Source: a virus
Lineage: Duplodnaviria > Caudoviricetes
Virus record (IMG/VR): IMGVR_UViG_3300035208_008180
Direction: 5' to 3' (one strand)
Length of the DNA stretch: 64,000 nucleotides
The translations under genes and the position numbers were made by a program. The notes beneath the pieces are model-generated. The model saw nothing but the letters and a program-made list of their open reading frames with translations. It was not told the DNA's origin and ran no database searches. Shown here piece by piece: positions 327 through 44,063 of the stretch. Positions within the stretch are counted from its first letter, which is position 1; each line of letters begins with the position of its first letter.

Positions 327-367
327 AGAAACATCCTTATAACAAATACAATTGAATTTGTAAAGAG

Positions 368-441
368 AGGGGGAAGTGAGAATCGAACTCACTACCTTCG
401 GCTTAACAGGCCGACGCATATACCTAATCAGCTTTTCCCCC
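368..441 (-). tRNA. tRNA-Asn(GTT)
   Basis: Cloverleaf GGGGGAA..TTCCCCC; anticodon arm TCGGC-CTGTTAA-GCCGA; T-loop TTCGATT. Confidence 0.93.
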
Positions 442-970
442 GATTATCATAACACCTTTTAAGCAAGTGTTCTGGAACTTCTGTAACGCCATTGCCAACT
501 TCGGCATGGCAATTAGCACACACCAAAACGCATTTATTTGCTTCCGACAACATAACTTCCCAACTTTTGCACAAACCTTGCTGCGAAAGTGAAAACTTTT
601 TATCACAAACATGATGAAACTCTAATGAGCCCTGATATTTGTTGTAACCACAAAGCTCACACCTTCCCCCAAAGTGAGCGACCAATTTTTCTTTTCTTTT
701 TACACGGCTCTTGGTCACAGCTTCCGATCTGCATTTTTTACATCGATATCCCTTGCAATCTCTCACAAACTCCACCGCACCGTGTTTTTTGCATATTGAT
801 GGAACGAACTTGGCAGTTGCATCTATCGTTTCATATTCCAAGTTCTTTGTGTTGTGTCTGCCAAACGGAGAACAAGATAAACAAAACTTACGACGCTGCA
901 AATTTCTTGCTTTTCCATCGACTATTGCTTCGAGCGGAAACTCCTCACCACACTTTTTACATTTTCTCAT
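428..970 (-). CDS. HNH homing endonuclease with N-terminal Zn-finger
   Basis: CELCGY..LEFHH..KCVLVCANCHAEV; start moved to ATG 970 (longer ORF runs through tRNA-Thr); lies between tRNA genes. Confidence 0.85.
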   Translation of the reverse strand: MRKCKKCGEEFPLEAIVDGKARNLQRRKFCLSCSPFGRHNTKNLEYETIDATAKFVPSICKKHGAVEFVRDCKGYRCKKCRSEAVTKSRVKRKEKLVAHFGGRCELCGYNKYQGSLEFHHVCDKKFSLSQQGLCKSWEVMLSEANKCVLVCANCHAEVGNGVTEVPEHLLKRCYDNRGKS

Positions 971-1038
971 ATATAACCTCCATGCTATATATGAGTAATA
1001 AACCAAATGTTTAACAAAAAATATTAAACATTTAGTAG

Positions 1039-1109
1039 AGCCACCAGTGGGAATCGAACCCACGTATCCACTTTACCGAAGTGGCACTCTACCATTGAGT
1101 TACAGCGGC
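1039..1109 (-). tRNA. tRNA-Thr(GGT), atypical C33
   Basis: GCCGCTG..TGGTGGC acceptor; CCACT-TCGGTAA-AGTGG; GTGGG-TTCGATT-CCCAC. Confidence 0.88.
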
Positions 1110-1165
1110 AGACCCGGCCATTATGTTCGTCACCAAAATATGGGAGCGGAACACCGGGTACTTAG

Positions 1166-1238
1166 CGGTGCCAACGAGTGTCGATCTCGTACTTCCTGCT
1201 CGACGGGCAGGTGTGCAGGGCCGCTACACTATGACACC
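1166..1238 (-). tRNA. tRNA-Asp(GTC), atypical C33 and A54
   Basis: GGTGTCA..TGGCACC-G; CCTGC-CCGTCGA-GCAGG; T-loop ATCGACA. Confidence 0.85.
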
Positions 1239-1579
1239 GAATCATCCAAATTCTGAAATGCATAAAGCAATACAAAAAGTTTCAACTTTTGCACTTCATC
1301 AAATTCTTTGTAAGGGATTGCACATCCTTGCTCTTTCATCAACTCCTTTAGTCCTTCAACATCTTCTTCTGGAATTGTGAAATCGCCAAACACATCCTCA
1401 AGCTTCATTCCAACCATCGACATAATGTTGCTGAACGATGGCGGTTCTTCTCGCAATTTCTTTGCGATAACTTGCAAAAGCTTGTCGTCATCAATGGCAT
1501 CTATTTTTGTTTTGACGGTGTGAGCAAACTTGTTTTGGACTGCTTTTTTTCCGCCAAAATATTTGAATACATCAACCAT
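1229..1579 (-). CDS. hypothetical protein
   Basis: 116-aa ORF on the coding strand. Confidence 0.55.
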   Translation of the reverse strand: MVDVFKYFGGKKAVQNKFAHTVKTKIDAIDDDKLLQVIAKKLREEPPSFSNIMSMVGMKLEDVFGDFTIPEEDVEGLKELMKEQGCAIPYKEFDEVQKLKLFVLLYAFQNLDDSVS

Positions 1580-1723
1580 GATTTATACCTTTGGTAGCGG
1601 TATTACAGATGGGTGCTCGTCGTCTATCTCATCCATAATGTCTGGAAATATAATTCGTAACAACAAATTCGCAAACAATATTGTCACCAAAGCCCATGCC
1701 ATGATTTTCCTTCAACTGCCATT

Positions 1724-2065
1724 CTAAATCAACTTCATGCTTTTTTCAATAGCAAGTTCTCGTGATGATCCAATTAATTCGTAAAGCTGATCTGGCAAGG
1801 GGTCGCCCGATTCGGCTTTATTATGGCAACCCTCACAAAGACTAATGCCATTTTCCGCCACATAGCCACCATTCGGCATCGCATCCCTGTCAGTGATGTG
1901 ATGTGCATCCAACTTGGCTCTTGGAATGTCTAAACCTTCAAATTCGCCAGTTTGACTACATTTCCCAGGTTGGCCACAGACCCTACATGCATATCGATCT
2001 CTTTTGAACACAGCTTTACGAAAAACTGATCTTACCGTTTGTTTTTTATGCATGATTTTCTCCAA
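1724..2065 (-). CDS. HNH endonuclease
   Basis: RDRYACRVC..LDAHHI..NGISLCEGCH. Confidence 0.85.
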   Translation of the reverse strand: MEKIMHKKQTVRSVFRKAVFKRDRYACRVCGQPGKCSQTGEFEGLDIPRAKLDAHHITDRDAMPNGGYVAENGISLCEGCHNKAESGDPLPDQLYELIGSSRELAIEKSMKLI

Positions 2066-2068
2066 AAG

Positions 2069-2142
2069 CGAGCGTGACGGGGGTCGAACCCGCTACCCCT
2101 TGATCGACAGTCAAGGATGCAAAACCGTTACACCTCACGCCC
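2069..2142 (-). tRNA. tRNA-Asp(GTC)
   Basis: GGGCGTG..CACGCTC-G; CTTGA-CTGTCGA-TCAAG; TTCGACC T-loop. Confidence 0.92.
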
Positions 2143-2145
2143 AAA

Positions 2146-2369
2146 ATTTGTCATCTCATAAGCGGAATTCTGTTTACAACCATCATTTATCTCACATTGC
2201 TGTGGTCTTTCGACTGCCTCTACCCGACTTCTCAGGGTCACTCACGCCCTCAGTCTGTTTGAGTTGCATCCTCGGTAGTTCGGACGAACAAAGTTCTCCT
2301 ACCTTAAAAGTGATGATGTTCCGACTTTCCTCTACGGATTGCTCCGCAGCGATGGTTCGGATGACAAAT
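2146..2369 (-). ncRNA. rnpB: RNase P RNA, minimal (catalytic domain only, 224 nt)
   Basis: P1 ATTTGTCATC/GATGACAAAT; P2 AACCATC/GATGGTT; P3 CTGCGGA-GCAA-TCCGTAG; CR-I GAGGAAAGTCGGAA pairing with CR-V ACAGAATTCCGCTTA (P4); P5 CATC/GATG; P6 TCACT/AGTGA; P7 GGTAG/CTACC; L15 GGTA; AGATAAAT before the P2 3' strand. Confidence 0.88.
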
Positions 2370-2394
2370 GTATATTAGAGAAAATACGATTTAG

Positions 2395-2467
2395 AGCCAC
2401 CAGAGGGAATCGAACCCACGACAGGCTGATTACAAATCAGCTACTCTACCAACTGAGTTACGGTGGC
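2395..2467 (-). tRNA. tRNA-Thr(TGT)
   Basis: GCCACCG..TGGTGGC; GCTGA-TTTGTAA-TCAGC. Confidence 0.95.
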
Positions 2468-2471
2468 AAAG

Positions 2472-2542
2472 AGCGTCCAGGGAGAATCGAACTCCCAGCT
2501 TGACCTTGGAAGGGTCAGGTATTACCACTATACGATGGACGC
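2472..2542 (-). tRNA. tRNA-Gly(TCC)
   Basis: GCGTCCA..TGGACGC-T; TGACC-CTTCCAA-GGTCA. Confidence 0.95.
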
Positions 2543-2547
2543 AAAAG

Positions 2548-2618
2548 TGGACCGTAGGAGAGTCGAACTCCTGTCTTCGCCGTGCAAGGGCGACGTAATC
2601 CCGTTATACCAACGGCCC
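2548..2618 (-). tRNA. tRNA-Ala(TGC)
   Basis: G3.U70; TCGCC-CTTGCAC-GGCGA. Confidence 0.95.
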
Positions 2619-2972
2619 ATTTCTTTTCCATCCAGAATAATCTCTGGAAGGCTCGCAAAAATGACCCTCTTCATCATAAGGCCATTCTTTATAATAAATC
2701 CAATCCTTTAAGCACTCCTCCCTGATGAATTTGTAGGCAAAAGGTCGAACACGCACCAATTGATCGTAATGTGCTTTGCTCTCAGACCCTGTTCTAATAT
2801 CCTTGATTAAAACAAGTTGCTTCTCATGCTCATGTCCAATTACTTTCCAATATGGACCGTGCAACAAAAAAGCATCCATATCCTGAAACATAAACATTTC
2901 ACCAGTTATCAAATCCTTTGCCTTGACGTGGTATCCTCCCCACCCTGGCTCGTCGCATCGCTTATCACTCAT
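2604..2972 (-). CDS. hypothetical protein
   Basis: 122-aa ORF with GAGGAG RBS. Confidence 0.6.
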   Translation of the reverse strand: MSDKRCDEPGWGGYHVKAKDLITGEMFMFQDMDAFLLHGPYWKVIGHEHEKQLVLIKDIRTGSESKAHYDQLVRVRPFAYKFIREECLKDWIYYKEWPYDEEGHFCEPSRDYSGWKRNGPLV

Positions 2973-2994
2973 TTTTTCTCCTCAGACGCCCATA

Positions 2995-3282
2995 CTAAAC
3001 AACTTTCTTCCAGCCATTCTCGGCTAAAATATTTTCTATTTTTGCAAACTTTCCTTCTTCGTCACATTCAACGTCGAAAGACACTTCAGATAATTTACCA
3101 TCACACGGAGAATAAATAAGCAAATCAGCATTACGAAGACACCAATCCTCCCCAGCCACATCAGGATGCATGCCAGGAAAAACAATGCCATCGCCAGTGT
3201 GCGGAATTATTTCTAATTCCAACTCTTTACTGTAAACTGCATTCTGTGATCCCCAAATAACAACATTGCAATCAATTCTCAT
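2995..3282 (-). CDS. hypothetical protein
   Basis: Start MRIDCN at 3282 after GAGGAG RBS, downstream of tRNA-Val. Confidence 0.6.
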   Translation of the reverse strand: MRIDCNVVIWGSQNAVYSKELELEIIPHTGDGIVFPGMHPDVAGEDWCLRNADLLIYSPCDGKLSEVSFDVECDEEGKFAKIENILAENGWKKVV

Positions 3283-3296
3283 AATTTTCTCCTCAG

Positions 3297-3370
3297 TGGT
3301 CGCAGCAGGGATCGAACCTGCGAGCCTCTCGCACGTCAAGCGAGCGTTCTCCCAACTGAACTATGCGACC
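3297..3370 (-). tRNA. tRNA-Val(GAC)
   Basis: GGTCGCA..TGCGACC-A; CTCGC-TTGACGT-GCGAG. Confidence 0.94.
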
Positions 3371-3374
3371 AAAG

Positions 3375-3448
3375 TCAAGGCGGCGAGAATCGAACTCGCA
3401 ATTTCAAGTCCCCCAGACTTGCGGGATAAACCATTTCCCTACGCCCTG
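3375..3448 (-). tRNA. tRNA-Pro(GGG)
   Basis: CAGGGCG..CGCCTTG-A; CAAGT-CTGGGGG-ACTTG. Confidence 0.93.
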
Positions 3449-4021
3449 TTATTTTCTAACTGCCCAATGGTAATGTATTTTACGATGGCAGTTAGCACAC
3501 AGCACTTTACACTTTGCTATTTCTTTTTTTAAATTGGGCAATCCCCAATCACAAACAGCCCTTGTAATATTGATTTCTTTTTCCCCATCGTGATGAAAAT
3601 CCAAACAACACTCTTCTTTTTCTCCGCACTCTTCACAACAATGCGTTCTTCTATATTCGCTAACAAACGCTCTGTTTCTCTGCCTTTTTACATTACTTGT
3701 TGTGGGTGGACAATCATTGCGATGAATTTTTCTATGACAATTTGCACAAACCACTTCACATTTAGCAATCTCTTTTTTCAATCTTTCTAAACCAAAGCCC
3801 TGAATAGCCGTTGCCACAGAAGTGTCTTTATCTCCAAGATGATGAAGTTGCAAACAAGCAACACACGACTCTCCGCAAGTACAAGCATGTGCTTCTTTGT
3901 ATTGCTCCACATACAGTTTGTTTGCTTGTTTTCTGTTTTTATTTCGATCTCTAAAAATTGCTTTATTTTTCTGAAAATGTTTTCTTTGAAACTCTTTTTG
4001 ATCTTCTTTATTTTTATACAT
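3449..4021 (-). CDS. tandem double-HNH endonuclease
   Basis: Two repeats of C..CGE...CL.FHH...EIAKC.V.CANCHRKIH; stop abuts tRNA-Pro. Confidence 0.87.
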   Translation of the reverse strand: MYKNKEDQKEFQRKHFQKNKAIFRDRNKNRKQANKLYVEQYKEAHACTCGESCVACLQLHHLGDKDTSVATAIQGFGLERLKKEIAKCEVVCANCHRKIHRNDCPPTTSNVKRQRNRAFVSEYRRTHCCEECGEKEECCLDFHHDGEKEINITRAVCDWGLPNLKKEIAKCKVLCANCHRKIHYHWAVRK

Positions 4022-4094
4022 TTGAACCTCACTATATTATATAGTAAGATTCAACTCATTTTAGGTGACTAAATTTATATTTTGTAGAAAAAAG

Positions 4095-4168
4095 TCGGGG
4101 TGGTCGGCTTCGCTCCGACGTTCTTGTGCTCCCGAAGCACATGGGATACTGGACTTCCCCACACCCCG
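4095..4168 (-). tRNA. tRNA-Pro(CGG), non-canonical elbow
   Basis: CGGGGTG..CACCCCG-A; TGTGC-TTCGGGA-GCACA; T-loop AGCGAAG; D-loop has AG for GG. Confidence 0.87.
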
Positions 4169-4171
4169 AAG

Positions 4172-4245
4172 TCAGGGTAGTCGGCTTCGCTCCGACGATC
4201 TCTTGCTCCCAAAGCAAGCGTGATACTAGGCTTCACTATACCCTG
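4172..4245 (-). tRNA. tRNA-Pro(TGG), non-canonical elbow
   Basis: CAGGGTA..TACCCTG-A; CTTGC-TTTGGGA-GCAAG; T-loop AGCGAAG. Confidence 0.87.
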
Positions 4246-4252
4246 CAAACAG

Positions 4253-4323
4253 TCGGTCAGACAAGAATCGAACTTGTTACCCGAGTTCCCAAAACTCGTA
4301 TGTCGCCATTACACCACAGACCG
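4253..4323 (-). tRNA. tRNA-Pro(TGG)
   Basis: CGGTCTG..CTGACCG-A; CGAGT-TTTGGGA-ACTCG. Confidence 0.9.
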
Positions 4324-4326
4324 AAA

Positions 4327-4536
4327 CTAAATCAACGCTTCCATAAAATAATCTTTTTCTTCTGCCACTTTCACAGCGGCAATTTTTATCACATAGCAAT
4401 GCCAAGTCCAAGTGGCCCCACCCCGATCCAGATCAACAGCATAACCAGTTTTCGTGACTTTGATTATTACACCATTACCTGCTCGTATAGGGCACAACAC
4501 TTTAACTCGATCACCGACTGCCAGCAATTTCTTCAT
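4327..4536 (-). CDS. KOW/SH3-like small protein (paralog family)
   Basis: VGDRVKV..G.GVII..; C-terminal DYFMEALI. Confidence 0.7.
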   Translation of the reverse strand: MKKLLAVGDRVKVLCPIRAGNGVIIKVTKTGYAVDLDRGGATWTWHCYVIKIAAVKVAEEKDYFMEALI

Positions 4537-4541
4537 ATCAA

Positions 4542-4811
4542 TTAACTTTGCCAAAGAGGCATCCAGCCAACAATTTCATCATTTTTTATTTTAACAAATC
4601 CATTCATATGATTCAAGGTTTCCCCATTATCCCAGAATCTGACTTCCATTCCTTCGGAATTTTTCATAAAATCAGCAGCATCTTTATCAATTGCATCATT
4701 TAAACCCTGGTCAATATCGATGCCATCTTTTTCCAAGTCGGCTTTGATAAATGCTGCCACATCTTCTATTTTTTGCTTTAGATGTTCTTTTCTCAACCAA
4801 TTATATTTCAT
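4542..4811 (-). CDS. hypothetical protein
   Basis: 89-aa ORF coupled by ATGA overlap. Confidence 0.55.
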   Translation of the reverse strand: MKYNWLRKEHLKQKIEDVAAFIKADLEKDGIDIDQGLNDAIDKDAADFMKNSEGMEVRFWDNGETLNHMNGFVKIKNDEIVGWMPLWQS

Positions 4812-5038
4812 ACAAACGCTTCCATAAAATAATCAATTTCTTTTTCGACCGAAACCAATTCCAACTCATTTTCCCTAAAGCCTAACGACCAGAATTTGTT
4901 ATGCGAATCTTCTATTCTCACGAAAACAAGTGGCAAAGCAACCCCTATAACAACGCCTTGCTGTCCCAGCCACACAAGATTGTTTGGAAATCTCGATGGA
5001 TATTTAACAACAACCCTGTCATCGATTTCAAATTTCAT
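4808..5038 (-). CDS. KOW/SH3-like small protein (paralog family)
   Basis: MKFEIDDRVVV..GQQGVVIG..ENELEL..DYFMEAFV. Confidence 0.7.
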   Translation of the reverse strand: MKFEIDDRVVVKYPSRFPNNLVWLGQQGVVIGVALPLVFVRIEDSHNKFWSLGFRENELELVSVEKEIDYFMEAFV

Positions 5039-5274
5039 ATAAGTGCTTCCATAAAATAATCAATTTCTTCGGCAACCGATGCTAATTCATTTTCTGCAAA
5101 CTGTAAAGAACATGTTCCACTAAAACTTGTTAAATCTGGCAAGACTGTTACGAATTTTAATGAAACCAAATAATAAACTGTCGTTTTTGTGGGCAACCCT
5201 ACAACAACGCCTATAGTGGTTGTCCAAATACTATTTCCAATGACTTTAACTTTATCACCGATTTTGAATTTCAT
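5035..5274 (-). CDS. KOW/SH3-like small protein (paralog family)
   Basis: MKFKIGDKVKV..GVVVG..ENEL..DYFMEALI. Confidence 0.7.
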   Translation of the reverse strand: MKFKIGDKVKVIGNSIWTTTIGVVVGLPTKTTVYYLVSLKFVTVLPDLTSFSGTCSLQFAENELASVAEEIDYFMEALI

Positions 5275-5480
5275 ATCAGTGCTTCCATAAAATAATCTTT
5301 TTTATCTTCAGCTAAAACCAACTCACTTTCTGCAAGTGTTAGTAATGTTTTGGAGCCATCTATTTGCACCAAAAACACAAGCACAGGATTGGTTATAAAG
5401 TCGAGCACGACACCTGTCTCATTTTTCCACTCTGACGACGACGTAACGACTTTAACTCGATCACCTATTTTGAATTTCAT
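5271..5480 (-). CDS. KOW/SH3-like small protein (paralog family)
   Basis: MKFKIGDRVKV..GVVLD..ESEL..DYFMEALI; ATG 6 nt after TGCTATAAT (leaderless). Confidence 0.7.
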   Translation of the reverse strand: MKFKIGDRVKVVTSSSEWKNETGVVLDFITNPVLVFLVQIDGSKTLLTLAESELVLAEDKKDYFMEALI

Positions 5481-5503
5481 AAATTTATTATAGCATAAGA
5501 CGA

Positions 5504-5592
5504 AAAAAAACGAGAGGTGTCCTCCCAATTAGACGACCAGCGGCTTTCGCAACCAAGTGGGACTCGAACCCACATTTCCTCTCTGCTTTCTT
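5504..5592 (-). ncRNA. circularly permuted tRNA-like RNA (YrlA-like topology)
   Basis: 5' stem AAGAAAGCAGAGAGG, T-arm GTGGG-TTCGAGT-CCCAC, acceptor-like stem closed by GAAA, D-arm GTCT-AATTGGGA-GGAC, 3' stem CCTCTCGTTTTTTT; no anticodon loop. Confidence 0.75.
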
Positions 5593-5597
5593 AAAAG

Positions 5598-5671
5598 TAC
5601 CCCGTATGGGATTCGAACCCATGATTTTCACCTTGAGAGGGTGACGACATAAACCGTTAGTCCAACGGGGC
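5598..5671 (-). tRNA. tRNA-Glu(CTC)
   Basis: GCCCCGT..ACGGGGT; TCACC-CTCTCAA-GGTGA. Confidence 0.93.
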
Positions 5672-5676
5672 ATGAG

Positions 5677-5749
5677 TAGCCGCAGGGTGAATCGAACACC
5701 CGTTTCCACCGTGTAAGGATGGCACTAAATACCACTCAGTTATGCGGCC
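5677..5749 (-). tRNA. tRNA-Val(TAC)
   Basis: GGCCGCA..TGCGGCT-A; CCATC-CTTACAC-GGTGG. Confidence 0.92.
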
Positions 5750-5762
5750 ATAAATAATATAG

Positions 5763-5834
5763 TAGCCCGTGACGGTTTCGATCCGTCTTCCGCTGCCTGA
5801 AAAACAGCTATCCTAGCCAGTAGACGAACGGGCC
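5763..5834 (-). tRNA. tRNA-Glu(TTC)
   Basis: GGCCCGT..ACGGGCT; GCTGT-TTTTCAG-GCAGC; T-loop ATCGAAA. Confidence 0.88.
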
Positions 5835-5844
5835 ATAACTAAAG

Positions 5845-5917
5845 TACCCTGTACGGGATTCGAACCCGTAATTTTCAGCTTGAAGGGCTGACGACATAAC
5901 CGTTAGTCCAACAGGGC
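5845..5917 (-). tRNA. tRNA-Glu(TTC), atypical C33
   Basis: GCCCTGT..ACAGGGT; TCAGC-CCTTCAA-GCTGA. Confidence 0.9.
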
Positions 5918-5921
5918 AGAA

Positions 5922-6061
5922 ATGCATGGGATGATTCTTTCACTCTTCTAAGGAACGAAGCCGTAGCCGAATCTAATCAGGTGGCCATCTCCCTTTTGAT
6001 TCTACACCTACTTTATTTCGGAGCAAGCCCCCTAAAAAAGTGAAAGAATCACCCCATGCAT
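5922..6061 (-). ncRNA. putative rod-shaped structured RNA (about 140 nt)
   Basis: About 30-bp closing stem ATGCATGGGGTGATTCTTTCACT.../...AGTGAAAGAATCATCCCATGCAT (G.U pairs only on minus strand); inner helices CCGAA/TTCGG and AGGTG/CACCT. Confidence 0.6.
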
Positions 6062-6087
6062 GTTACATGCATTTGGAAATTTAACCG

Positions 6088-6101
6088 AATTGTCAAAGAT
6101 C
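6088..6101 (-). promoter_or_regulatory. boxA-like antitermination motif GATCTTTGACAATT
   Basis: Resembles rrn-leader boxA; identical 14-mer at 42246-42259 in the other tRNA array. Confidence 0.6.
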
Positions 6102-6158
6102 GGAGGGTTTACGACTACTTGCTTACCAAGCGTATTCGTCGTCCTACACCCACAGGTT

Positions 6159-6443
6159 TTACTTGAGGACTCTATCGAGCCACCAAGCGAAGTCTTTCAA
6201 CTCTGGATCGTTGTAAAGTTCGTGTTTGAAAAGAAGTTTTCGTTTGATGTCTTCTCTCCACATTTTAACCACTACATCCATCCAGTGTTTTCCGACCACG
6301 TATCCATTTATTTTGTTATCAAAAAGGTTGATTTTCATATTGCCTATACCTCGGGTTTCCCAGAGGTAAGCTTCCATCGCCGCCTCATCCGAAAAATCAA
6401 AATGTTCTTCGGAGAAGTAGCGGTAGATCGGCTTGAACTTCAA
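6159..6443 (-). CDS. hypothetical protein, first ORF after attenuator A
   Basis: 94-aa ORF. Confidence 0.55.
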   Translation of the reverse strand: MKFKPIYRYFSEEHFDFSDEAAMEAYLWETRGIGNMKINLFDNKINGYVVGKHWMDVVVKMWREDIKRKLLFKHELYNDPELKDFAWWLDRVLK

Positions 6444-6489
6444 CCAATTTTCACTGATGCCAAACGCATTTTATTTCCCCTTTGTCAAT

Positions 6490-6527
6490 AAAAAAACCCG
6501 GACTCAAGTTTCCTTGATCCGGGTTTT
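6490..6527 (-). terminator. attenuator A intrinsic terminator
   Basis: AAAACCCGGATCAAG-GAAA-CTTGAGTCCGGG followed by T7. Confidence 0.85.
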
Positions 6528-6577
6528 GATTTTCTTCCGGCTCAAGGTTTTGCCCCTGAGCCTTGTCTAGCTCAGGG

Positions 6578-6682
6578 TCAAATGGCGGTATTATCTTCGA
6601 CTTCTGGACGTACCGCCACTGTGGGTATTGTTGTACCCTCAGGTGCCGGTCGTCTTGTTGTTCCGAAGAAATTACTCATCAT
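6578..6682 (-). CDS. leader peptide A (MMSNFFGTTRRPAPEGTTIPTVAVRPEVEDNTAI)
   Basis: 34-aa ORF whose stop abuts the first attenuator helix; composition matches downstream tRNAs. Confidence 0.75.
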   Translation of the reverse strand: MMSNFFGTTRRPAPEGTTIPTVAVRPEVEDNTAI

Positions 6683-6837
6683 TTGACCCTTAAAATAGCG
6701 AAACTTGGATGGGTTGGTTGTCTTAGGCGGTTGGGTAAAACCCAAACCCTCGACCAATGCTCCAAATCTCACTACCTCCTTTATATAGTACGTTCGAGAA
6801 AAAATCAAGCCCAAATTCCGAAAAATTTTTTTCTAAG

Positions 6838-6965
6838 TCCGACGACCCGGAATCGAACCGGCTATTACCCGAATGTTGCAACACCCAAAGTAACTTGAGC
6901 ATCAAGCCATTTCGCACCCAAAATCTACCCATATGTCTCGAATTTGGATACGTGCCTGTCATCGG
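6838..6965 (-). ncRNA. tRNA-like RNA with enlarged arms (128 nt)
   Basis: Acceptor CCGATGAC/GTCGTCGG-A, T-arm CCGG-TTCGATT-CCGG, three internal hairpins; own promoter at 6971-7000. Confidence 0.65.
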
Positions 6966-6970
6966 TCATC

Positions 6971-7000
6971 ATTATACTTCAGATTTCGCCGTTGTAAACC
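6971..7000 (-). promoter_or_regulatory. conserved sigma70-type phage promoter GTTTACA-N16-TATAAT
   Basis: GGTTTACAACGGCGAAATCTGAAGTATAAT; motif recurs at least 12 times in the window. Confidence 0.8.
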
Positions 7001-7007
7001 AAAAAAA

Positions 7008-7251
7008 ATGGCAGGTTGGGCTTGAGTACCAACTACGAACTTTGAACACCAATTTTTCGTTATTTCCCCAACGTATCAAGTGCCGTGTCTTCGTTGGGTC
7101 GGTGCCAGGGTCTAATCGCTTTGTCCTTTCCCTTGCGGGGAAGGCACGAAGTAGTCACCTACACTCACCGGGCACTACCGGATAGCTCGTGTCACCCAGT
7201 AGGCTTTCGCCTACCCTCATTGCGAAGCGTGTCCATCCACGCCGCTGCCAT
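7008..7251 (-). ncRNA. putative structured ncRNA (about 244 nt) with tRNA-like ends
   Basis: Closing stem ATGGCAG/CTGCCAT; D-like arm GCGTG-GATGGA-CACGC; T-like arm GTTGG..CCAAC; GNRA hairpins GTAGGC-GAAA-GCCTAC, GTAG-GTGA-CTAC, CCC-GCAA-GGG; promoter at 7277. Confidence 0.65.
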
Positions 7252-7276
7252 ACACCGAGGTGTATCTGACAATGCC

Positions 7277-7305
7277 ATTATACTTCAGTGCCTGGATTTG
7301 TAAAG
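7277..7305 (-). promoter_or_regulatory. conserved phage promoter
   Basis: CTTTACAAATCCAGGCACTGAAGTATAAT. Confidence 0.75.
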
Positions 7306-7514
7306 TCCGAATCCAGCCATTTGCAACATTCGTCAAAACCCTCAATGTGGAGGGATTGCTCTTCCTCTGTCAGTTCAACCTCTGGCGGTATTTTGACGGG
7401 CATTGGTCCAAAAAACGTATCTCGGAAAATGCCGGAAGAATTGATTTCATAGACAGCCCAAGCACCACCATAACCATCAGAGGTTATCTTGAGAATCCAT
7501 TCTTTTAATTTCAT
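7278..7514 (-). CDS. hypothetical protein
   Basis: 78-aa ORF. Confidence 0.5.
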   Translation of the reverse strand: MKLKEWILKITSDGYGGAWAVYEINSSGIFRDTFFGPMPVKIPPEVELTEEEQSLHIEGFDECCKWLDSDFTNPGTEV

Positions 7515-18361: not shown

Positions 18362-18572
18362 TGTAAAAAAAGTCTATCTGCCCCTTGTTCTTGCAACCAT
18401 CGAGTCACCACCAAATGAAACACTCGGTGTATTTGCTCTGAAGTTAGTGGCTCCCCAGGTTTTTCATAATTAAAAAAACCTGCTTCCTTTAATTTGGCGA
18501 ACTCCAATTTTTCCAACAAAGATTTGGCGTCTTTGTCTTCAATGAGAATTACTTTCATCATTTCCTCCTAAG

Positions 18573-18649
18573 TCAGCGGGGCAGGATTCGAACACTGCGA
18601 CCTTCAGCTTGTTTATGGCTGATGCTCTGGCCAACTGAGCTACCCGCCG
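18573..18649 (-). tRNA. tRNA-like gene with 9-nt anticodon loop (undetermined or pseudo)
   Basis: CGGCGGG..CCCGCTG-A; canonical D-arm; TCAGC-CATAAACAA-GCTGA; bulged T-stem. Confidence 0.7.
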
Positions 18650-30415: not shown

Positions 30416-31822
30416 CTAATCCTCCGAGGGGCTGTTATCGCCACACATTTTCACAATCTTCGGATTAAAGGTTGCAACAATTTCAACCAAATCCGATTGA
30501 GCCGCCATAACTGTATCAATATCTTTATAGACCCCAGGGCTTTCGTCTGCCGTGGCGTCCAAGACAATGACACCTTGCCGATCCAAGTTACCTTGGACAG
30601 CTTTCCAAACATATTTTTCTTTGGCTTTTTTACGAGACATCAATCGCCCCGCCCCGTGAGAAGCAGAACAAAGACTCGCCGGATTACCTTTGCCCACCAC
30701 AATATAAGCAGGCGTGCCCATCGAACCAGGAATTACACCCAGCATACGATGGCTTGCAGGGGTTGCTCCCTTACGATGCACCACTACCTCGCCTTGATTC
30801 GGATCATGCGTTTCAAGGAAAGCGAAATTGTGATGATTCTCTACATTAAATAAAACTTTGGCTCCCAAATTCTGAGCCATAGCCTTGTGAATCAATTGAT
30901 GATTGGCTTGAGCGAATCGACCCATCAATTGCATTGCGAGCCAATATTCCTGCCCATCATTGGATGCCAAATCCAACCATGCCAGATTTTTCAAATCGTC
31001 ATATTTCTTCGGCAACTTGGATTGAGCAACCCCGTGATACATTTGGCATACTGCTGCCCCCGGTCCCCGAGAACCTGAATGAGTCATAATTGCCACATAC
31101 TCACCAGGGAGCAGCCCAGCAATATCTGCAAGCGATGGCGAATTTTGTATTTGCAGAATGCCGACATCAATAAAATGATTTCCGCTACCCGAAGTTCCTA
31201 GCTGCTTCCAGGCTTTGTCTTTTTGCTGTTTGGTGACTCTGGTAATTCCCCAATCCTCATCCATAACCGGATGATTTTTGGGCTGATCGAAGACCGCATT
31301 TCCGCCGTCGCCAATACCAAAACGAGTGCTCTTGGCAATCGCTTCCCTGTACAAATTAAATTTCTTTTCCAAGGAATTGACTGGCATATCTAGGATTGAC
31401 AAGCTCATACGGCAAGCAATATCGACGCCGACCGCATTCGGACATACGGCTCCTTGCAAAGCCAAAACCCCACCAATGGGCAGTCCGTAACCAACATGAC
31501 AATCTGGCATAACGGCGGCAGTAACCGCCATCGGCAATGAACAAGCTTGCTGCATTTGTCCGTCACAACCCTCTTCCAACGACCCCCATACCTTGTAGGG
31601 GATAGCAGCAGATCGAACAAACTGTTGCTCTTGAATTAGAAGATTGGCTAAATCTCCGAAGTGTTTATCTCCGACATATTCCTGAGGGTTGGTGAAGAAA
31701 GTCTTCATGATAGCCTTGATATTGCGATCATCGCCGCCCTCTCGGGCTACACGAATAGCATCGACCGCAAGACGGGCACAATCCTCAGGACATCCAAGTT
31801 TAACAAGCTGTTTGCCGTTCAT
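30416..31822 (-). CDS. rtcB: RNA 3'-phosphate/5'-OH ligase RtcB
   Basis: MPDCHVGYGLPIGG, VGVDIAC, GTSGSGNHF, HSGSRG, HHNFA, HRKGAT, PGSMG, SHGAGR, DESPGVYK. Confidence 0.96.
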   Translation of the reverse strand: MNGKQLVKLGCPEDCARLAVDAIRVAREGGDDRNIKAIMKTFFTNPQEYVGDKHFGDLANLLIQEQQFVRSAAIPYKVWGSLEEGCDGQMQQACSLPMAVTAAVMPDCHVGYGLPIGGVLALQGAVCPNAVGVDIACRMSLSILDMPVNSLEKKFNLYREAIAKSTRFGIGDGGNAVFDQPKNHPVMDEDWGITRVTKQQKDKAWKQLGTSGSGNHFIDVGILQIQNSPSLADIAGLLPGEYVAIMTHSGSRGPGAAVCQMYHGVAQSKLPKKYDDLKNLAWLDLASNDGQEYWLAMQLMGRFAQANHQLIHKAMAQNLGAKVLFNVENHHNFAFLETHDPNQGEVVVHRKGATPASHRMLGVIPGSMGTPAYIVVGKGNPASLCSASHGAGRLMSRKKAKEKYVWKAVQGNLDRQGVIVLDATADESPGVYKDIDTVMAAQSDLVEIVATFNPKIVKMCGDNSPSED

Positions 31823-38359: not shown

Positions 38360-38611
38360 ATTTCTCCCTGGGCTGCTCCTATTATACTTCAGAAACAGAG
38401 GTTGTAAACTCTTTTCGTTTAAACCAATAAAAACCCCTGTGTTTTACCCAGCCGCCTACGGAAATGTAGAAGAAATACTTCCACAACATCGCAAGCCACC
38501 CAACCCCATAAATATAGGCAACCCACTCAGAATGGTTGCTGAACATCAACAACAATGGCAGAATGATGAGAATAGTTAAAACAATCACAATCTGTAGCGT
38601 TGTTTTCATAG

Positions 38612-38683
38612 GGTGGCCGACGAGAATCGAACTCGTATACCCGGATTCACAGTCCAGTTCCTAAGCCATTCGGACACGGCCAC
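38612..38683 (-). tRNA. tRNA-His(GTG), no encoded G-1
   Basis: GTGGCCG..CGGCCAC-C; CTGGA-CTGTGAA-TCCGG. Confidence 0.92.
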
Positions 38684-38685
38684 AG

Positions 38686-38758
38686 TGAGACCAGACGGAC
38701 TTGAACCGTCACCTACTTCCTTAAGAGGGAAGAATGCTGCCGCTAACACCTTGGTCCC
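38686..38758 (-). tRNA. tRNA-Lys(CTT)
   Basis: GGGACCA..TGGTCTC-A; CTTCC-CTCTTAA-GGAAG. Confidence 0.9.
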
Positions 38759-38763
38759 AAAAA

Positions 38764-39045
38764 TCATTCAAAATCCACAATCTGACAACGACGATCAGAG
38801 TGATATTTTCCCAACACAACTTCCAACATTTCTTTATCAGAAAGAATTCCCTTGTCCGACAAAGTAGAAACTAAATTGCCGAGCACTTCGGCAAGTCTTT
38901 TGATCCTATCTTCGATTCCATTGTGCCTGTCGTAGAAGTCATCCTTTCCTTCCATGACAAAATGCTCAACAAATTGTTCAACAGAAAATTCCTCAACAAA
39001 TTCACCAGTGCTTGGGTGCGGAGTACCAAATCTTACTGTTTTCAC
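38764..39045 (-). CDS. hypothetical protein
   Basis: 93 aa with GGAGGT RBS. Confidence 0.55.
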   Translation of the reverse strand: MKTVRFGTPHPSTGEFVEEFSVEQFVEHFVMEGKDDFYDRHNGIEDRIKRLAEVLGNLVSTLSDKGILSDKEMLEVVLGKYHSDRRCQIVDFE

Positions 39046-39260
39046 GATTCACCTCCTCCAAATAACGCTTCCAAATCTTCAGCGTCAATCACTCGCTGTC
39101 CATCGCTCAGTTGATAGACTTTCAGCTTCACGCCACCTAAATCCAAAACGCCTCTGTGTGTGGCGAATGGAACTTCACCATCCAATTCTGGCGGTTCGGC
39201 AGGAAGAGACTCCCACTCCACCCCATCCAACAAAATTTGTATTGGAGATTTGGATTCCAT
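39042..39260 (-). CDS. hypothetical protein (resembles N-terminus of P63C/antirepressor-type proteins)
   Basis: GVLDLGG..LKVYQLSDGQRVI; promoter 39270-39299. Confidence 0.45.
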   Translation of the reverse strand: MESKSPIQILLDGVEWESLPAEPPELDGEVPFATHRGVLDLGGVKLKVYQLSDGQRVIDAEDLEALFGGGES

Positions 39261-39880
39261 ATTGCCCTCATTATACTTCAGAAATTGACGTTGTAAACCA
39301 ATTCATTACCACGGCTTTCATTTGATCGCCAAACTCTTCAATAGCTGCCTCAACCTCCCTGAAATCATCCCCTTCCTGCCACAAAACATCAGAACACTCC
39401 ATCATCCCCTTCGGACTAAAATCAAACAAACGCTCAACAACTTCAAGTTTCTGCTCTCTTGTTAGTTGCATCTCATCCTCCACAACCACAAGGACTAAAA
39501 TCCATATTTCGTTCTTTGGATAATTTATCAATACTTCCGTCTTCTGCACATGTTTTACAAATTACCACATGTTCTTGACCATCGTGATATAATCGACAAC
39601 CAACAAATATTCCGCACGACTCACAAGGAAATCCATCTCTGGCTTCGTTGGCTAAATTCCAATTACTCATTTTACATGTCCCCAATTTGCTATAGCAAGT
39701 GATTCTGTCCAGCGTCCAAACAGTGGATGCTCCCAAAACCACTCGTTATTCACCAATGGCGGATTTAATATCCTTTTCCATCCATTGGCCCTCAACTTTG
39801 CACGCCTTTGCCAACTATCTGTCAGCATTTCAGCAACTTCTGTCAGTGCTTTTTCACCAATAGTCATGATTATTCTCCAG

Positions 39881-39953
39881 GGTGACTAACGGGAGTCGAA
39901 CCCGCTAAAACCTGATCCACAGTCAGGCCCCTAACCGTTCGGGATTAGCCACC
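39881..39953 (-). tRNA. tRNA-His(GTG) with G-1
   Basis: G-GTGGCTA..TAGTCAC-C; CCTGA-CTGTGGA-TCAGG. Confidence 0.9.
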
Positions 39954-40174
39954 ATATTTCGTAATCCTAATCGACACCCACTCTGACTCTCCTCTTGGAA
40001 GAATACCAACCTGAAGCACGTTGTCCATTTTCCAATCAACAACGGAATCATCGCAATATAACGAAAATTCCGATATAATGTCCTCAACATACAATCCTAA
40101 ATCTTCCCAAAAAGCTGCTGATTGGAAAGCAATTCTCTGAATTGACAAAAGCAATCGTCTTATTTGTACTCTGG

Positions 40175-40333
40175 TTATATTTTTTCCACATAACAATGCC
40201 AAGTCCATGTCACACCTCCATGATCTAAATCGATGTTATAGCCAGTTTTAGTGATTTTGATTATAACACCATCACCCGCCCGTTTGGGACACAACACCTT
40301 AACCCTATCGCCAATTTCAAGTAATTTTTTCAT
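40175..40333 (-). CDS. KOW/SH3-like small protein, paralog of 4327-4536
   Basis: MKKLLEIGDRVKVLCPKRAGDGVIIKITKTGY..WTWHCYV. Confidence 0.7.
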   Translation of the reverse strand: MKKLLEIGDRVKVLCPKRAGDGVIIKITKTGYNIDLDHGGVTWTWHCYVEKI

Positions 40334-40336
40334 AAG

Positions 40337-40407
40337 CAGGAGTGCTAGGATTCGGACCAAGATCGACGGTTTTGGAGACCGTTATGCTACCATTGCACCA
40401 CACTCCT
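40337..40407 (-). tRNA. tRNA-Trp(CCA)
   Basis: AGGAGTG..CACTCCT-G; ACGGT-CTCCAAA-ACCGT. Confidence 0.92.
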
Positions 40408-40413
40408 TCGCAG

Positions 40414-40488
40414 CAGCACCGCCAGGACTCGAACCCGGATCGCCTCGATTTGGAATCGAGTGCCCTAAGCCATTTGGACCACGGTGCT
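40414..40488 (-). tRNA. tRNA-Trp(CCA)
   Basis: AGCACCG..CGGTGCT-G; CTCGA-TTCCAAA-TCGAG. Confidence 0.92.
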
Positions 40489-40565
40489 GTATTTGAATGC
40501 TGTGGGTCGTGTGGGCGTGGCATTGCTAGGCAACGGCGTTTCCTCGGAACACCACAGCATTCAAG

Positions 40566-40644
40566 AGTCGGCAGGCGGAATCGAACCACTTAACATCTGA
40601 TTTGCAATCAGACCCCCAGCCTTCGGAGATTAGTTTCTGCCGAC
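40566..40644 (-). tRNA. tRNA-Cys(GCA), atypical acceptor-D linker
   Basis: GTCGGCAG..CTGCCGAC-T; TCTGA-TTGCAAA-TCAGA; about 8 extra nt before D-arm. Confidence 0.8.
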
Positions 40645-40651
40645 AATTCAG

Positions 40652-40728
40652 TGGAGCTAGAGGGAGTCGCACCCTCAGTTACCAACGTACCCATTGTAGG
40701 TTTTACGTTAGACTCGCTTTGTAGCCCC
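40652..40728 (-). ncRNA. mini tmRNA-like RNA (tRNA-like domain only, 77 nt)
   Basis: GGGGCTA..TAGCTCC-A with G3.U70; no D-stem; helix CTAACGTA/TACGTTGG closed by a 14-nt loop; T-arm GAGGG-TGCGACT-CCCTC. Confidence 0.72.
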
Positions 40729-40956
40729 TTATCTTTTTGGACCTTGCCAATCATCCCTGTATTTATATGTAAATTCAGCATCAATTGGCGTGTTCAATCC
40801 TTCCTCTCGCAACATTTCCTCAAGAGCATCAGCCACTTCATCATAAACATCACAACGCTCTTGTTCTACGGCCCAAGTCCATGTGCTGCCGGTAGGCGTA
40901 TGACTTGCTTTTTCCCTTAATTGAGCAATATATGCTCTAATCTTTTCCGACTTCAT
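40729..40956 (-). CDS. hypothetical protein
   Basis: 75-aa ORF inside array B. Confidence 0.5.
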   Translation of the reverse strand: MKSEKIRAYIAQLREKASHTPTGSTWTWAVEQERCDVYDEVADALEEMLREEGLNTPIDAEFTYKYRDDWQGPKR

Positions 40957-41155
40957 CTTTCTTTCCCTTTTTCTTCTTTTCTTTTGGTGCTGATTTCAAA
41001 CTTTCAATCAAAACTTTTACCTCAGCATTTTCCGCAAGTTTAGTTATCAACTCATTCAATCCATGAATCTCCAAACCTTGCCTTGTCGTTTGTTTCACAA
41101 GGTCTTGTATTACACCCTGTGGATCAGTTTGACAGCGTTCTTCAAAGGTTATCAT
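40937..41155 (-). CDS. hypothetical protein
   Basis: 72-aa ORF with GAGGT RBS. Confidence 0.5.
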   Translation of the reverse strand: MITFEERCQTDPQGVIQDLVKQTTRQGLEIHGLNELITKLAENAEVKVLIESLKSAPKEKKKKGKKDEVGKD

Positions 41156-41524
41156 TTTACCCTCTCACAACATCATGGATTTTTGACGGAGCTTGAACAA
41201 CATCTATGATTTCAAAACCAGGAGGCATATATTTTTGTGCCTCATCCCAAGCTTCGCTCACACAAGCGGCGGCTACACTGATCTTTGGTGTCTTAACCTT
41301 TTCCTTGATGTTTTTCTTGAACTTTACAAGATATTGCATGTTTCATCCTTTGCATCAAAATTTACACAATCACATTCCCAGCAGCAGCCTTCTTCGTCAT
41401 GTGCTTCTGAAAGATGCCCACAGGAACATATCATTTTCTTATATCGACTGCAAGAGGGGTCGTGACCACCTCTCAAATCCCTTTCGCATTCGCTACATTC
41501 GATGCTCATATCATTCTCCTTTAG

Positions 41525-41595
41525 CTGCCCCGTAAGGAATCGAACCTTATCTTTCTCGTTCAGAGCGAGACGTGCGGCCACTACACCACGGGGCA
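41525..41595 (-). tRNA. tRNA-Gln(CTG)
   Basis: TGCCCCG..CGGGGCA-G; TCTCG-CTCTGAA-CGAGA. Confidence 0.94.
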
Positions 41596-41601
41596 AAATA
41601 G

Positions 41602-41673
41602 CTGGGCTGGAAGGATTCGAACCTTCACGAACAGATTCAAAGTCTGTCAGGCTAACCGTTACCTCACAGCCCA
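41602..41673 (-). tRNA. tRNA-Gln(TTG)
   Basis: TGGGCTG..CAGCCCA-G; ACAGA-CTTTGAA-TCTGT. Confidence 0.94.
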
Positions 41674-41781
41674 AAAATTTGGTAAATATTTCGGTGTTCC
41701 ACAGCTTAAACTGCCGAGGTTAGAGGCTGTCCATCCTCACCGAGGTTATCGGCCACCGTATCGCCAACTTGGGACATTTAG

Positions 41782-41866
41782 CAGGGGCAGAAGGAATTGA
41801 ACCTCCGAGTGCTTTCGCATGCAGCTTCAAAGACTGCCGGGGTCTGCCAACAACCCCAATACCCCC
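41782..41866 (-). tRNA. atypical tRNA with TTG (Gln) anticodon, 6-bp D-stem and variable arm
   Basis: GGGGGTA..TGCCCCT-G; GGGGTT/GACCCC; GCAGT-CTTTGAA-GCTGC; TGC-GAAA-GCA; GGAGG-TTCAATT-CCTTC. Confidence 0.78.
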
Positions 41867-41871
41867 ATGTT

Positions 41872-41994
41872 TGCAACCAACTGGAATCGAACCAATATTT
41901 CTCCGGTGTCGGGAACGTTTTGCCTTAGGCCGCTTTTTGCCAACCCTTGTTCTAGAATTGAATTAGTTATTACGACCCCTTAAACTATAGTTGC
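41872..41994 (-). ncRNA. tRNA-like RNA with hairpin insertion in D-loop
   Basis: GCAACTA..TGGTTGC acceptor; D-stem GTTT/AAAC split by about 50-nt hairpin; ATTGG-TTCGATT-CCAGT; degenerate anticodon arm. Confidence 0.6.
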
Positions 41995-41997
41995 AAG

Positions 41998-42070
41998 TGA
42001 GACCGTTGGGATTCGCACCCAAAACCTACGGCTTAAAAGGCCGTTGCTCTACTAATTGAGCTACGATCCC
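41998..42070 (-). tRNA. tRNA-Lys(TTT), A18/G55 elbow
   Basis: GGGATCG..CGGTCTC-A; ACGGC-CTTTTAA-GCCGT; T-loop TGCGAAT. Confidence 0.9.
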
Positions 42071-42160
42071 ATATAAGGAAAAGATTGCCAATCTTTATTA
42101 CAGCAGCACAACCTTTGCAGGAAACCCTGGGAAAAGGATTTTATGGCCACAAACCTTGAG

Positions 42161-42232
42161 TGGGTCCACTCGGAATCGAACCGAGGTCAAAACATTAAGA
42201 GTGTTCTATTCTAGCCGCTGAACTATGGACCC
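42161..42232 (-). tRNA. tRNA-Lys(CTT)
   Basis: GGGTCCA..TGGACCC-A; GAACA-CTCTTAA-TGTTT. Confidence 0.93.
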
Positions 42233-42245
42233 AAAGGATAAACCA

Positions 42246-42259
42246 AATTGTCAAAGATC
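42246..42259 (-). promoter_or_regulatory. boxA-like antitermination motif GATCTTTGACAATT
   Basis: Identical to 6088-6101. Confidence 0.6.
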
Positions 42260-42264
42260 ACAAG

Positions 42265-42335
42265 TGGGTCCACGGGGAATCGAACCCCGATAAACTGGGT
42301 AAAAGCCAGTTATTCTGCCATTGAATTACGAACCC
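42265..42335 (-). tRNA. tRNA-Lys(TTT)
   Basis: GGGTTCG..TGGACCC-A; ACTGG-CTTTTAC-CCAGT. Confidence 0.92.
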
Positions 42336-42985: not shown

Positions 42986-43040
42986 AATAGAACCTTGCCT
43001 TTCTACCTATATATAATAGCAAAGTTCTATTTTTTTCAAG

Positions 43041-43114
43041 TCGTGGCTTTGAGAGTCGAACTCAACACGGAATCCTTATCAGGGATTCCAGGGCAAACCG
43101 GCCCGTCAGCCACG
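43041..43114 (-). tRNA. tRNA-Ile(GAT), atypical 7-bp anticodon stem
   Basis: CGTGGCT..AGCCACG-A; GGAATCC-CTGATAA-GGATTCC; TTGAG-TTCGACT-CTCAA. Confidence 0.8.
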
Positions 43115-43707: not shown

Positions 43708-43748
43708 AAAAAAAGCCCTGTCCAGTTTTTTACCTGAACGGGGCTTTT
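43708..43748 (-). terminator. attenuator B intrinsic terminator
   Basis: AAAAGCCCCGTTCAG-GTAAAAAA-CTGGACAGGGC followed by T7. Confidence 0.82.
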
Positions 43749-43793
43749 CAATACCAACCCGGCTCAGGCATTTGTCCTGAGCCACGGTGCAAC

Positions 43794-43862
43794 TCAGAAC
43801 AGATCGCCAGTAATGCAGCAATGCTGCCACTTTTGTTTCTGTTGTTTTTGTTGCTTCGACAT
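43794..43862 (-). CDS. leader peptide B (MSKQQKQQKQKWQHCCITGDLF)
   Basis: 22-aa ORF with AAGGA RBS, below the ORF-track cutoff; stop lies inside the first attenuator helix. Confidence 0.78.
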   Translation of the reverse strand: MSKQQKQQKQKWQHCCITGDLF

Positions 43863-43879
43863 TATTCTTTTTCCTTCAG

Positions 43880-43953: not shown

Positions 43954-43973
43954 TCATGTTTTCAAAAATTAAG

Positions 43974-44046: not shown

Positions 44047-44063
44047 TCATGTTCATATATATG

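Follow-up and report, generated by a model that had tools for sequence, protein, structure and literature searches.

A predicted leader-peptide attenuator ahead of a tRNA array in a huge phage

How and when would a phage transcribe a large block of tRNA genes? The question is raised by a locus at which a short ORF and a terminator stand in front of 16 tRNA genes, and at which the codons of the ORF are largely those that these tRNAs read. The original prediction for this locus was that two homologous leader-peptide attenuators divide the genetic code between two tRNA arrays. On the evidence below, we consider the element in front of the 16 genes (attenuator A) to be a transcription attenuator of the ribosome-mediated leader-peptide kind, controlling a phage tRNA operon, with a probability of about 0.8. 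Its translation, termination, readthrough, operon extent and trigger are all inferred, and there are no RNA data.

The window, i.e. the whole stretch of 64,000 nucleotides that was analysed, corresponds to positions 32001-96000 of contig C200 in bin G000 (coordinates are those of the window unless another contig or locus is named). C200 has a length of 340,072 bp and a GC content of 40%, whilst the remainder of the bin is 65% GC. Its phage genes include those for DNA polymerase, helicase and ribonucleotide reductase, it has members of several PHROG families, and it also encodes RtcB, an NAD synthase and an NAD-dependent ligase; its 65 tRNA genes are all on the minus strand. Given the GC contrast, the phage genes and the number of tRNAs, C200 is a huge-phage contig that has been mis-binned with a bacterial MAG of 65% GC. 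The end of C200 and a second contig (C242, 97 kb) have a 127-base overlap without mismatches, and therefore the phage genome must be larger than C200 (>340 kb). In all, the bin holds ~1.08 Mb of contigs of 37-50% GC (C200, C242 and 18 other low-GC contigs) inside the 65% GC genome. A search for a host link using short matches between C200 and the rest of the bin returned other low-GC contigs only.

Leader ORFs and the tRNA arrays behind them

The likely start of the leader A transcript is a promoter-like TTTACA-16-TATAAT at 6971-6998 (minus strand, 11 of 12 matches). A promoter of this type also precedes leader C (see below) and the leader A ortholog of the closest IMG/VR relative, G001. The gap between promoter and leader is occupied by a tRNA-like insert of 118 nt (6838-6955, minus strand), which has a 7-bp acceptor-like stem, a canonical T-arm and an irregular body but which is called neither by ARAGORN nor by Rfam. 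Relatives from a pond metagenome lack 6831-6968, with 18 other bases there instead, and in the pond relative analysed below the promoter directly adjoins position 6830; judging from the sequences, the insert appears not to be needed for the device. Nearer to the leader there is an upstream ORF of 28 codons (6679-6765, minus strand), which starts with TTG behind an AGGAGGT (6780-6774) and ends in a TGA that overlaps the leader ATG, just as had been proposed. Translational coupling from this ORF into leader A is possible. The Shine-Dalgarno match of leader A itself is weak (AAGGG).

Leader ORF A (6578-6682, minus strand) comprises 34 codons and a TGA, and has the composition originally claimed for it: Pro codons of all four kinds, Val as GTG, GTA and GTC, Glu as GAG and GAA, Thr as ACA (five times) and ACC, and no Lys, Gln, Trp, His or Cys. 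The proposed sensed stretch is codons 7-34, which spell G, T, R, P, A, E, I, V, D and N only, with all ten in use. The initial residues, M-M-S-N-F-F, are placed outside the sensed stretch because the Phe and Ser tRNAs sit in a different array (array C).

Behind leader A, ARAGORN calls exactly the 16 tRNAs that had been listed (array A within the window, 367-5917, minus strand: Glu x3, Val x2, Pro x4, Ala, Gly, Thr x2, Asp x2 and Asn). To the left of base 1 the array continues with 14 further tRNAs (Arg x4 and the kinds Gly, Thr, Val, Glu, Asn and Ile(UAU)), which brings it to 30 tRNAs and the following ten amino acids: E, V, P, A, G, T, D, N, R and I. Leader A's ATA codon is read by the tRNA-Ile(UAU), which is located at the distal end of the array. 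The continuation had been expected to contain Arg, Phe, Ser or Ile tRNAs: Arg and Ile were found, the latter as Ile(UAU), but Phe and Ser were not, being located in array C.

The first gene behind attenuator A is a 94-aa ORF of unknown function (6159-6443, minus strand) without a Pfam family; in a metagenome scan it had a single homolog (51%), with neither tRNAs nor an attenuator nearby. Between this ORF and the first tRNA lies a boxA-like motif, TCTTTGACAATT (6088-6099, minus strand). The promoter scan found no strong sigma-70-type promoter between terminator A and the tRNAs, a scan that is blind to promoters for a phage sigma factor or a phage polymerase. After the first four tRNAs of the array (Glu, Glu, Val, Glu) there is a terminator-like hairpin with a T8 run (5511-5527, minus strand). 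This hairpin may subdivide the operon or may be read through, and a single transcript may consequently not reach all 30 tRNAs sampled by leader A.

Attenuator B is arranged similarly, being homologous to A in its segments 1-5 and T run (43708-43799, minus strand). Its promoter, TTGACA-16-TATACT, is followed by two tRNA-Met genes (43879-44091, minus strand, with the promoter), which lie ahead of leader B and outside the attenuated part. Leader ORF B (43794-43862, minus strand) has 22 codons, of which codons 3-17 spell K, Q, W, H, C and I only, and the array behind it contains Ile, Lys x4, Gln x3, Cys, Trp x2 and His x2 (array B, 38611-43114, minus strand). Two further promoters of the TTTACA-16-TATAAT type, each with 11 of 12 matches, lie at 39270-39297 and 38381-38408 (minus strand); the one at 39270-39297 precedes the last Lys and His tRNAs of array B, both of which may thus escape attenuator B.

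A third leader, C, with Ser, Leu, Tyr and Phe, is located outside the window (C200 241259-241179, minus strand; L138:5179-5259) and stands before a Leu/Ser/Tyr/Phe array. It is surrounded by a TTTACA-17-TATAAT promoter and a strong terminator, and is built from three segments, with the terminal codons of the ORF pairing with the 5' arm of the terminator. Each of the three attenuators is immediately followed by protein ORFs. The code is indeed divided between attenuators, as the original prediction held, but between three leaders rather than two, and leader C is the additional Leu/Tyr/Ser leader whose existence elsewhere had been foreseen.

The agreement between leaders and arrays extends to individual codons. 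With codon reading counted as Watson-Crick or G:U pairing, codons 7-34 of leader A sample 18 of the 21 anticodon types of its array (CCC, CCU and CCG are unsampled), and 25 of the 28 codons are readable by the array tRNAs. Not one of 115,393 background 28-codon windows from the phage's ORFs reached both figures, a result that removes the concern that random ORFs might match the array equally well. The corresponding values are 8/8 anticodon types and 15/15 codons for leader B, and 11/11 anticodon types and 16/17 codons for leader C. Jointly, the three leaders spell 19 of the 20 amino acids; the three arrays together with the two tRNA-Met genes cover all 20.

The 12-mer TCTTTGACAATT occurs in four copies on the contig, all of them in tRNA arrays and on the transcribed strand (the others are at window 42246-42257, minus strand, and at C200 240482 and C200 334614), and one copy is found behind the class-II attenuator of a related phage, LR756511. 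It resembles the rrn boxA consensus. A Nus-type antitermination that helps the polymerase to cross the long untranslated arrays may be at work here, but there are no data for Nus binding or for antitermination.

Other features touch on the tRNA inventory. An RtcB RNA ligase gene (30419-31822, minus strand; Pfam E 9.5e-89) lies between arrays A and B, a position beside tRNA arrays that fits a phage facing tRNA damage. Near it are genes for NAD synthase, a nucleoside deoxyribosyltransferase-NUDIX fusion, a MazG-cytidylyltransferase fusion and an NAD-dependent DNA ligase. A lone tRNA-Phe of 78 nt with the unusual anticodon AAA (18572-18649, minus strand; Rfam 45.5 bits) is well away from all arrays and leaders. 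ARAGORN called tRNAs with a CUA anticodon (amber suppressor type, labelled Pyl) in LR756511.1 (~179588), XacN1 and RsoM2USA, and none on C200.

The predicted RNA switch

The fold of the leader A region gives z = -9.05 against shuffled sequences. As had been noticed, A and B have a common core: GGCTCAGG..TGAGCCGG is present twice in the window, once in each attenuator, and in 0/100 shuffles. In attenuator A, where all elements are on the minus strand, segment 1 (CCCTGAGC, 6570-6577) is immediately 3' of the stop codon and would be under a terminating ribosome. Segment 2 (GGCTCAGGG, 6554-6562) can take segment 1 or segment 3 as its partner, and segment 3 (CCTTGAGCCGG, 6537-6547) can pair with segment 2 or, to form the antiterminator, with segment 4. 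Segments 4 (6512-6527) and 5 (6508-6497) are the 5' and 3' arms of the terminator, a 15-bp hairpin (6527-6493) with a T7 run at 6496-6490, 81 nt past the stop. The competing helices are similarly strong, with energies of -14.6 (1:2), -15.2 (2:3), -14.5 (3:4) and -19.8 kcal/mol (4:5).

The effect of the ribosome was modelled by constrained folding, in which the ribosome footprint was masked and only the RNA preceding the 3' arm of the terminator was folded. With the ribosome at the stop codon of leader A, helix 2:3 formed and segment 4 was left free for the terminator. Placing it eight codons upstream gave helices 1:2 and 3:4 instead. Attenuator B behaved in the same way. In the fold of the untranslated RNA, the 11-nt start region (6680-6690) pairs with the stop region (6584-6574), of which it is the exact reverse complement as had been stated; segment 1 is thereby sequestered and the terminator results. 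In silico, attenuator A hence meets the requirement for a mutually exclusive antiterminator that depends on ribosome position.

This overlap between terminator and antiterminator is not a general property of the phage's terminators. When the complementarity of the terminator 5' arm to the 90 nt upstream was scored, the mean z was -2.43 for 26 leaders and -0.19 for 56 comparison terminators, which are other terminators of this phage (p = 5e-8). A 40-nt upstream window gave no signal for antiterminator complementarity, because the three-segment design places the partner within the ORF; the test is valid with 90 nt.

Co-variation of leaders and arrays in related phages

Relatives were reached through a PrkA-like protein (L133:12218-14290, minus strand), which matches LR756511.1 (68% identity), three 630-kb phages (~26%) and many IMG/VR contigs (63-75%). 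Across nine related uncultured phages, the composition of the leader shifts with the content of the array.

In LR756511, a promoter and a tRNA-Met are followed by one leader (L147:19830-19937, minus strand). Apart from its first three residues, this main leader uses 16 amino acids, without L, S and Y, and the array behind it covers those same 16, including Phe. A second leader starts with GTG, is rich in S, L and Y, and stands before a Ser/Leu/Tyr array that has no Phe. Phe is thus placed in the main leader of LR756511 versus leader C of our phage, and moves together with its tRNA. In G001, the ortholog of leader A (L272:4798-4911) has the same initial residues and the same ten amino acids, and keeps all four helices with different sequences and with the same constrained folds; helix 2:3 has two double compensatory changes, G:C to C:G and G:C to A:T. 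Conservation of the helices in relatives, on which the original prediction could have failed, is therefore supported. The second G001 leader (L270:626-661) contains only K, Q, R, N, T and P after Met and precedes Lys, Gln, Arg and Asn tRNAs, so that Asn and Arg are placed in the Lys/Gln leader of that phage.

The 2:3 hairpin of A and B recurs in the main leader of LR756511. When the ribosome is placed at the stop, however, the equilibrium fold of the LR756511 leader, like that of the second G001 leader, prefers helix 3:4 over 2:3, and the switch in these two would therefore depend on kinetic trapping. The exact 2:3 hairpin motif was found only in A, B and LR756511, and was absent from ten other relatives searched; a MAFFT alignment of A, B and the LR756511 leader leaves the helices out of register. 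Pattern scans of IMG/VR for the A/B core gave GC-rich chance matches only, and the proteins adjacent to the attenuators are either orphans or absent from IMG/VR and from GenBank phages.

The 630-kb phages have a leader and terminator of their own before almost every small tRNA block. Pairs include a run of Q before four tRNA-Gln genes, L/S/C before Leu, Ser and Cys, Y/E before Glu and Tyr, and I/R/M before Arg, Ile and Met. These leaders (L154-L166) have common N-terminal words (M-K-T-I-N and M-T-T) and C-terminal words (V-R-L-Y-S and G-V-Y-S), and the shared C-terminal words overlap the antiterminator strand. At the level of sequence, this suggests that a single cassette has been repeatedly duplicated and re-spelled. 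The pairing of leaders with arrays was put to a permutation test on 29 automatically paired ORF-plus-terminator units from five phages, with three false units included. The summed z was 97, compared with 0.1 +/- 8.9 for permuted pairings, a value that 0/100,000 permutations reached (Z 10.9).

A closer view of drift within leader A is given by the pond-metagenome relative, which is ~92% identical across 6065-6830. Its leader region had to be partly reconstructed (10 of 19 gap letters are missing) and the reading is partial. The leader peptide has six replacements and one lost residue, all within the ten-amino-acid set, and three 1-nt deletions inside 14 nt that keep the frame. Pairing is retained as G:U at the changes at 6557 and 6684, the stem of the terminator survives five changes in its arms via a register shift, and a mismatch in helix 3:4 is displaced by one position. 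The upstream TTG ORF has two synonymous changes and one Ile-to-Val. As far as this partial reading goes, the composition of leader A appears to be conserved but the peptide itself does not.

A simple screen also gave candidates in two cultured phages, neither of them annotated. In Ralstonia phage RsoM2USA, a leader at MG752970.1 87361-87248 (minus strand) has 30 consecutive in-set residues; within the candidate unit (87361-87196, minus strand) the antiterminator overlaps the terminator, and the unit is followed by tRNAs for Met, Ile, Asn, Asn, Gln, Lys, Arg, Phe, Ala, Val and others. In Agrobacterium phage Atu_ph07, the candidate is at MF403008.1 ~339246-339100 (minus strand), ahead of Ala, Arg, Phe, Pro, Ile, Tyr, Trp, Met, Glu and more. 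A simple screen for codon-matched leaders in T5, KVP40, Bxz1, GAP32 and XacN1 found none; this is no proof of absence, but it implies that the device is not general to tRNA-rich phages.

Proposed mechanism, alternatives and comparison with known systems

Taken together, the attenuator interpretation is supported by the in silico checks on random ORFs, on helix conservation and on a third leader, each of which it passed. The following sequence of events can be proposed. Transcription would start from TTTACA-16-TATAAT, and a ribosome would translate the 34-codon leader as RNA polymerase proceeds, with codons 7-34 drawing on nearly every tRNA species encoded downstream. Where decoding is fast, the ribosome would arrive at the TGA and cover segment 1, helices 2:3 and 4:5 would form, and the transcript would end at the terminator and its T7 run. 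Where any of the sampled aminoacyl-tRNAs is scarce, the ribosome would stall upstream, allowing 1:2 and the 3:4 antiterminator to form, and the polymerase would go on to transcribe the 94-aa ORF, the boxA-like site and then the tRNA genes. A leader that is not translated would also lead to the terminator, since the pairing of start and stop regions blocks segment 1. Leaders B and C would act alike on the other arrays, such that three groups of codons are gauged and tRNA supply is placed under negative feedback.

Could the same arrangement have arisen without a device of this kind? The set of array A covers ten amino acids, in-set runs are not rare, and four longer ones exist on the contig, although three of these are in tandem repeats; a short ORF might accidentally resemble the array. 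We give this next to no credence and rejected it, as neither the background windows (0/115,393) nor the permuted pairings (Z 10.9) equal what is observed and as there are three leaders on one contig, each correctly placed. It is also very improbable, if somewhat less so, that the terminator merely ends an upstream unit, such as a promoter with tRNA-Met, that the ORF is a small protein or noise, and that the tRNAs are transcribed from unrecognised promoters of their own. A tRNA-Met does precede the leader in B and in LR756511, and phage-specific promoters cannot be scanned for. Nonetheless, such a terminator would leave unexplained the codon match, its co-variation with array content in nine other phages, the in-set replacements in the pond relative, and the excess of antiterminator complementarity that ordinary terminators lack.

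What a working device would respond to is harder to decide, and candidates for the physiological signal are the amount of tRNA, its charging, and slow decoding in general. Classical attenuators, such as those of the trp and his operons, sense tRNA charging, and a stalled ribosome cannot distinguish a missing tRNA from an uncharged one. Amino-acid starvation or general translation stress might accordingly be the signal instead of tRNA abundance, and, with protein ORFs directly behind all three attenuators, the leaders might time the expression of the arrays and their interspersed protein genes during infection. Nevertheless, an extra tRNA is useless when the amino acid itself is missing, and both the sampling at the level of codon and anticodon and the gain or loss of an amino acid by a leader together with its tRNA gene argue for tRNA supply as the variable under control. 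A signal other than tRNA abundance is for these reasons unlikely, though it cannot be dismissed as readily as the other two alternatives.

Returning to the leader-peptide attenuator as the preferred reading, two extensions can be offered tentatively, and as a pair we rate them at slightly under even odds. One is that the three leaders make up a closed-loop, codon-resolved decoding monitor, in which each leader activates the tRNA block that is being read slowly whilst tRNA-Met is made unconditionally ahead of B. The other is that the split of sensing evolves, with one leader for 16 amino acids in LR756511, two paralogous leaders here and many small units in the 630-kb phages. If the monitor exists, the phage could make up, whenever needed, for a host tRNA pool that does not match its own codons, for the decay of host tRNAs during infection or for defences based on anticodon nucleases, with RtcB nearby. 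If the attenuator reading itself holds, phage tRNA arrays would be regulated, self-tuning organs and not constitutive cargo, and there would be a concrete answer to how and when huge phages deploy their many tRNAs. Such a leader would also be a natural multi-codon sensor of decoding speed, for up to 16 amino acids per leader, and might find further use in reporting how available tRNAs are. The attenuator reading is testable, given parts of ~200 nt, predictions specific to each amino-acid set and the candidates in two cultured phages.

Phage tRNA arrays as a substitute for a depleted or mismatched host tRNA pool are a published idea, and the cargo here is the same: a large set of phage tRNAs, beside an RtcB RNA ligase. 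To our knowledge, those accounts describe the tRNAs without a feedback sensor ahead of the arrays. Leader-peptide attenuation is a textbook mechanism for amino-acid biosynthetic operons, and we know of no instance for tRNA genes; a full-text literature search turned up no publication linking leader peptides to tRNA genes of phages. So far as this search could show, tRNA genes have no published control in the style of the trp operon; in the present case that control is itself inferred. A further, possible likeness is to rrn boxA antitermination, in that the boxA-like TCTTTGACAATT lies behind the attenuators and ahead of long untranslated RNA genes.

As a proposed cis-acting transcription attenuator that would report on tRNAs and control translation-related genes, the element is also like a T-box riboswitch, which reports the state of one tRNA. 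T-boxes, which control aminoacyl-tRNA synthetase and amino-acid genes, bind uncharged tRNA directly by means of a specifier codon and the T-box sequence and need no translation, whereas here sensing would be by a translated ORF, the translation being inferred. The Rfam searches excluded a T-box, giving no match to RF00230 either in the window or in 5900-7400. Nor did Rfam recognise a known leader family: the whole window at the gathering threshold returned tRNAs only, and 5900-7400 with E up to 1 returned nothing.

The closest known systems are the multivalent leader-peptide attenuators of enterobacteria, i.e. the ilvGMEDA leader with its Ile, Leu and Val codons and the thr leader with Thr and Ile, which stand alongside hisL, trpL, pheL and leuL. 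As in these, there is a short leader ORF rich in regulatory codons, an intrinsic terminator and an overlapping antiterminator, the position of the ribosome would decide the fold, and an untranslated leader would terminate by default. Such attenuators control genes for the synthesis or charging of the amino acid that the regulatory codons name; this feature is missing here, as tRNAs and small family-less ORFs lie behind A. The phage-encoded element differs in that the genes it would control are for tRNAs and not biosynthetic enzymes. In place of the four segments of the enterobacterial leaders, A, B and their relatives have five, owing to an extra inverter hairpin in which segment 1 follows the stop; and where enterobacterial leaders have runs of one to three amino acids, the phage leaders spell 4 to 16, with almost every isoacceptor.
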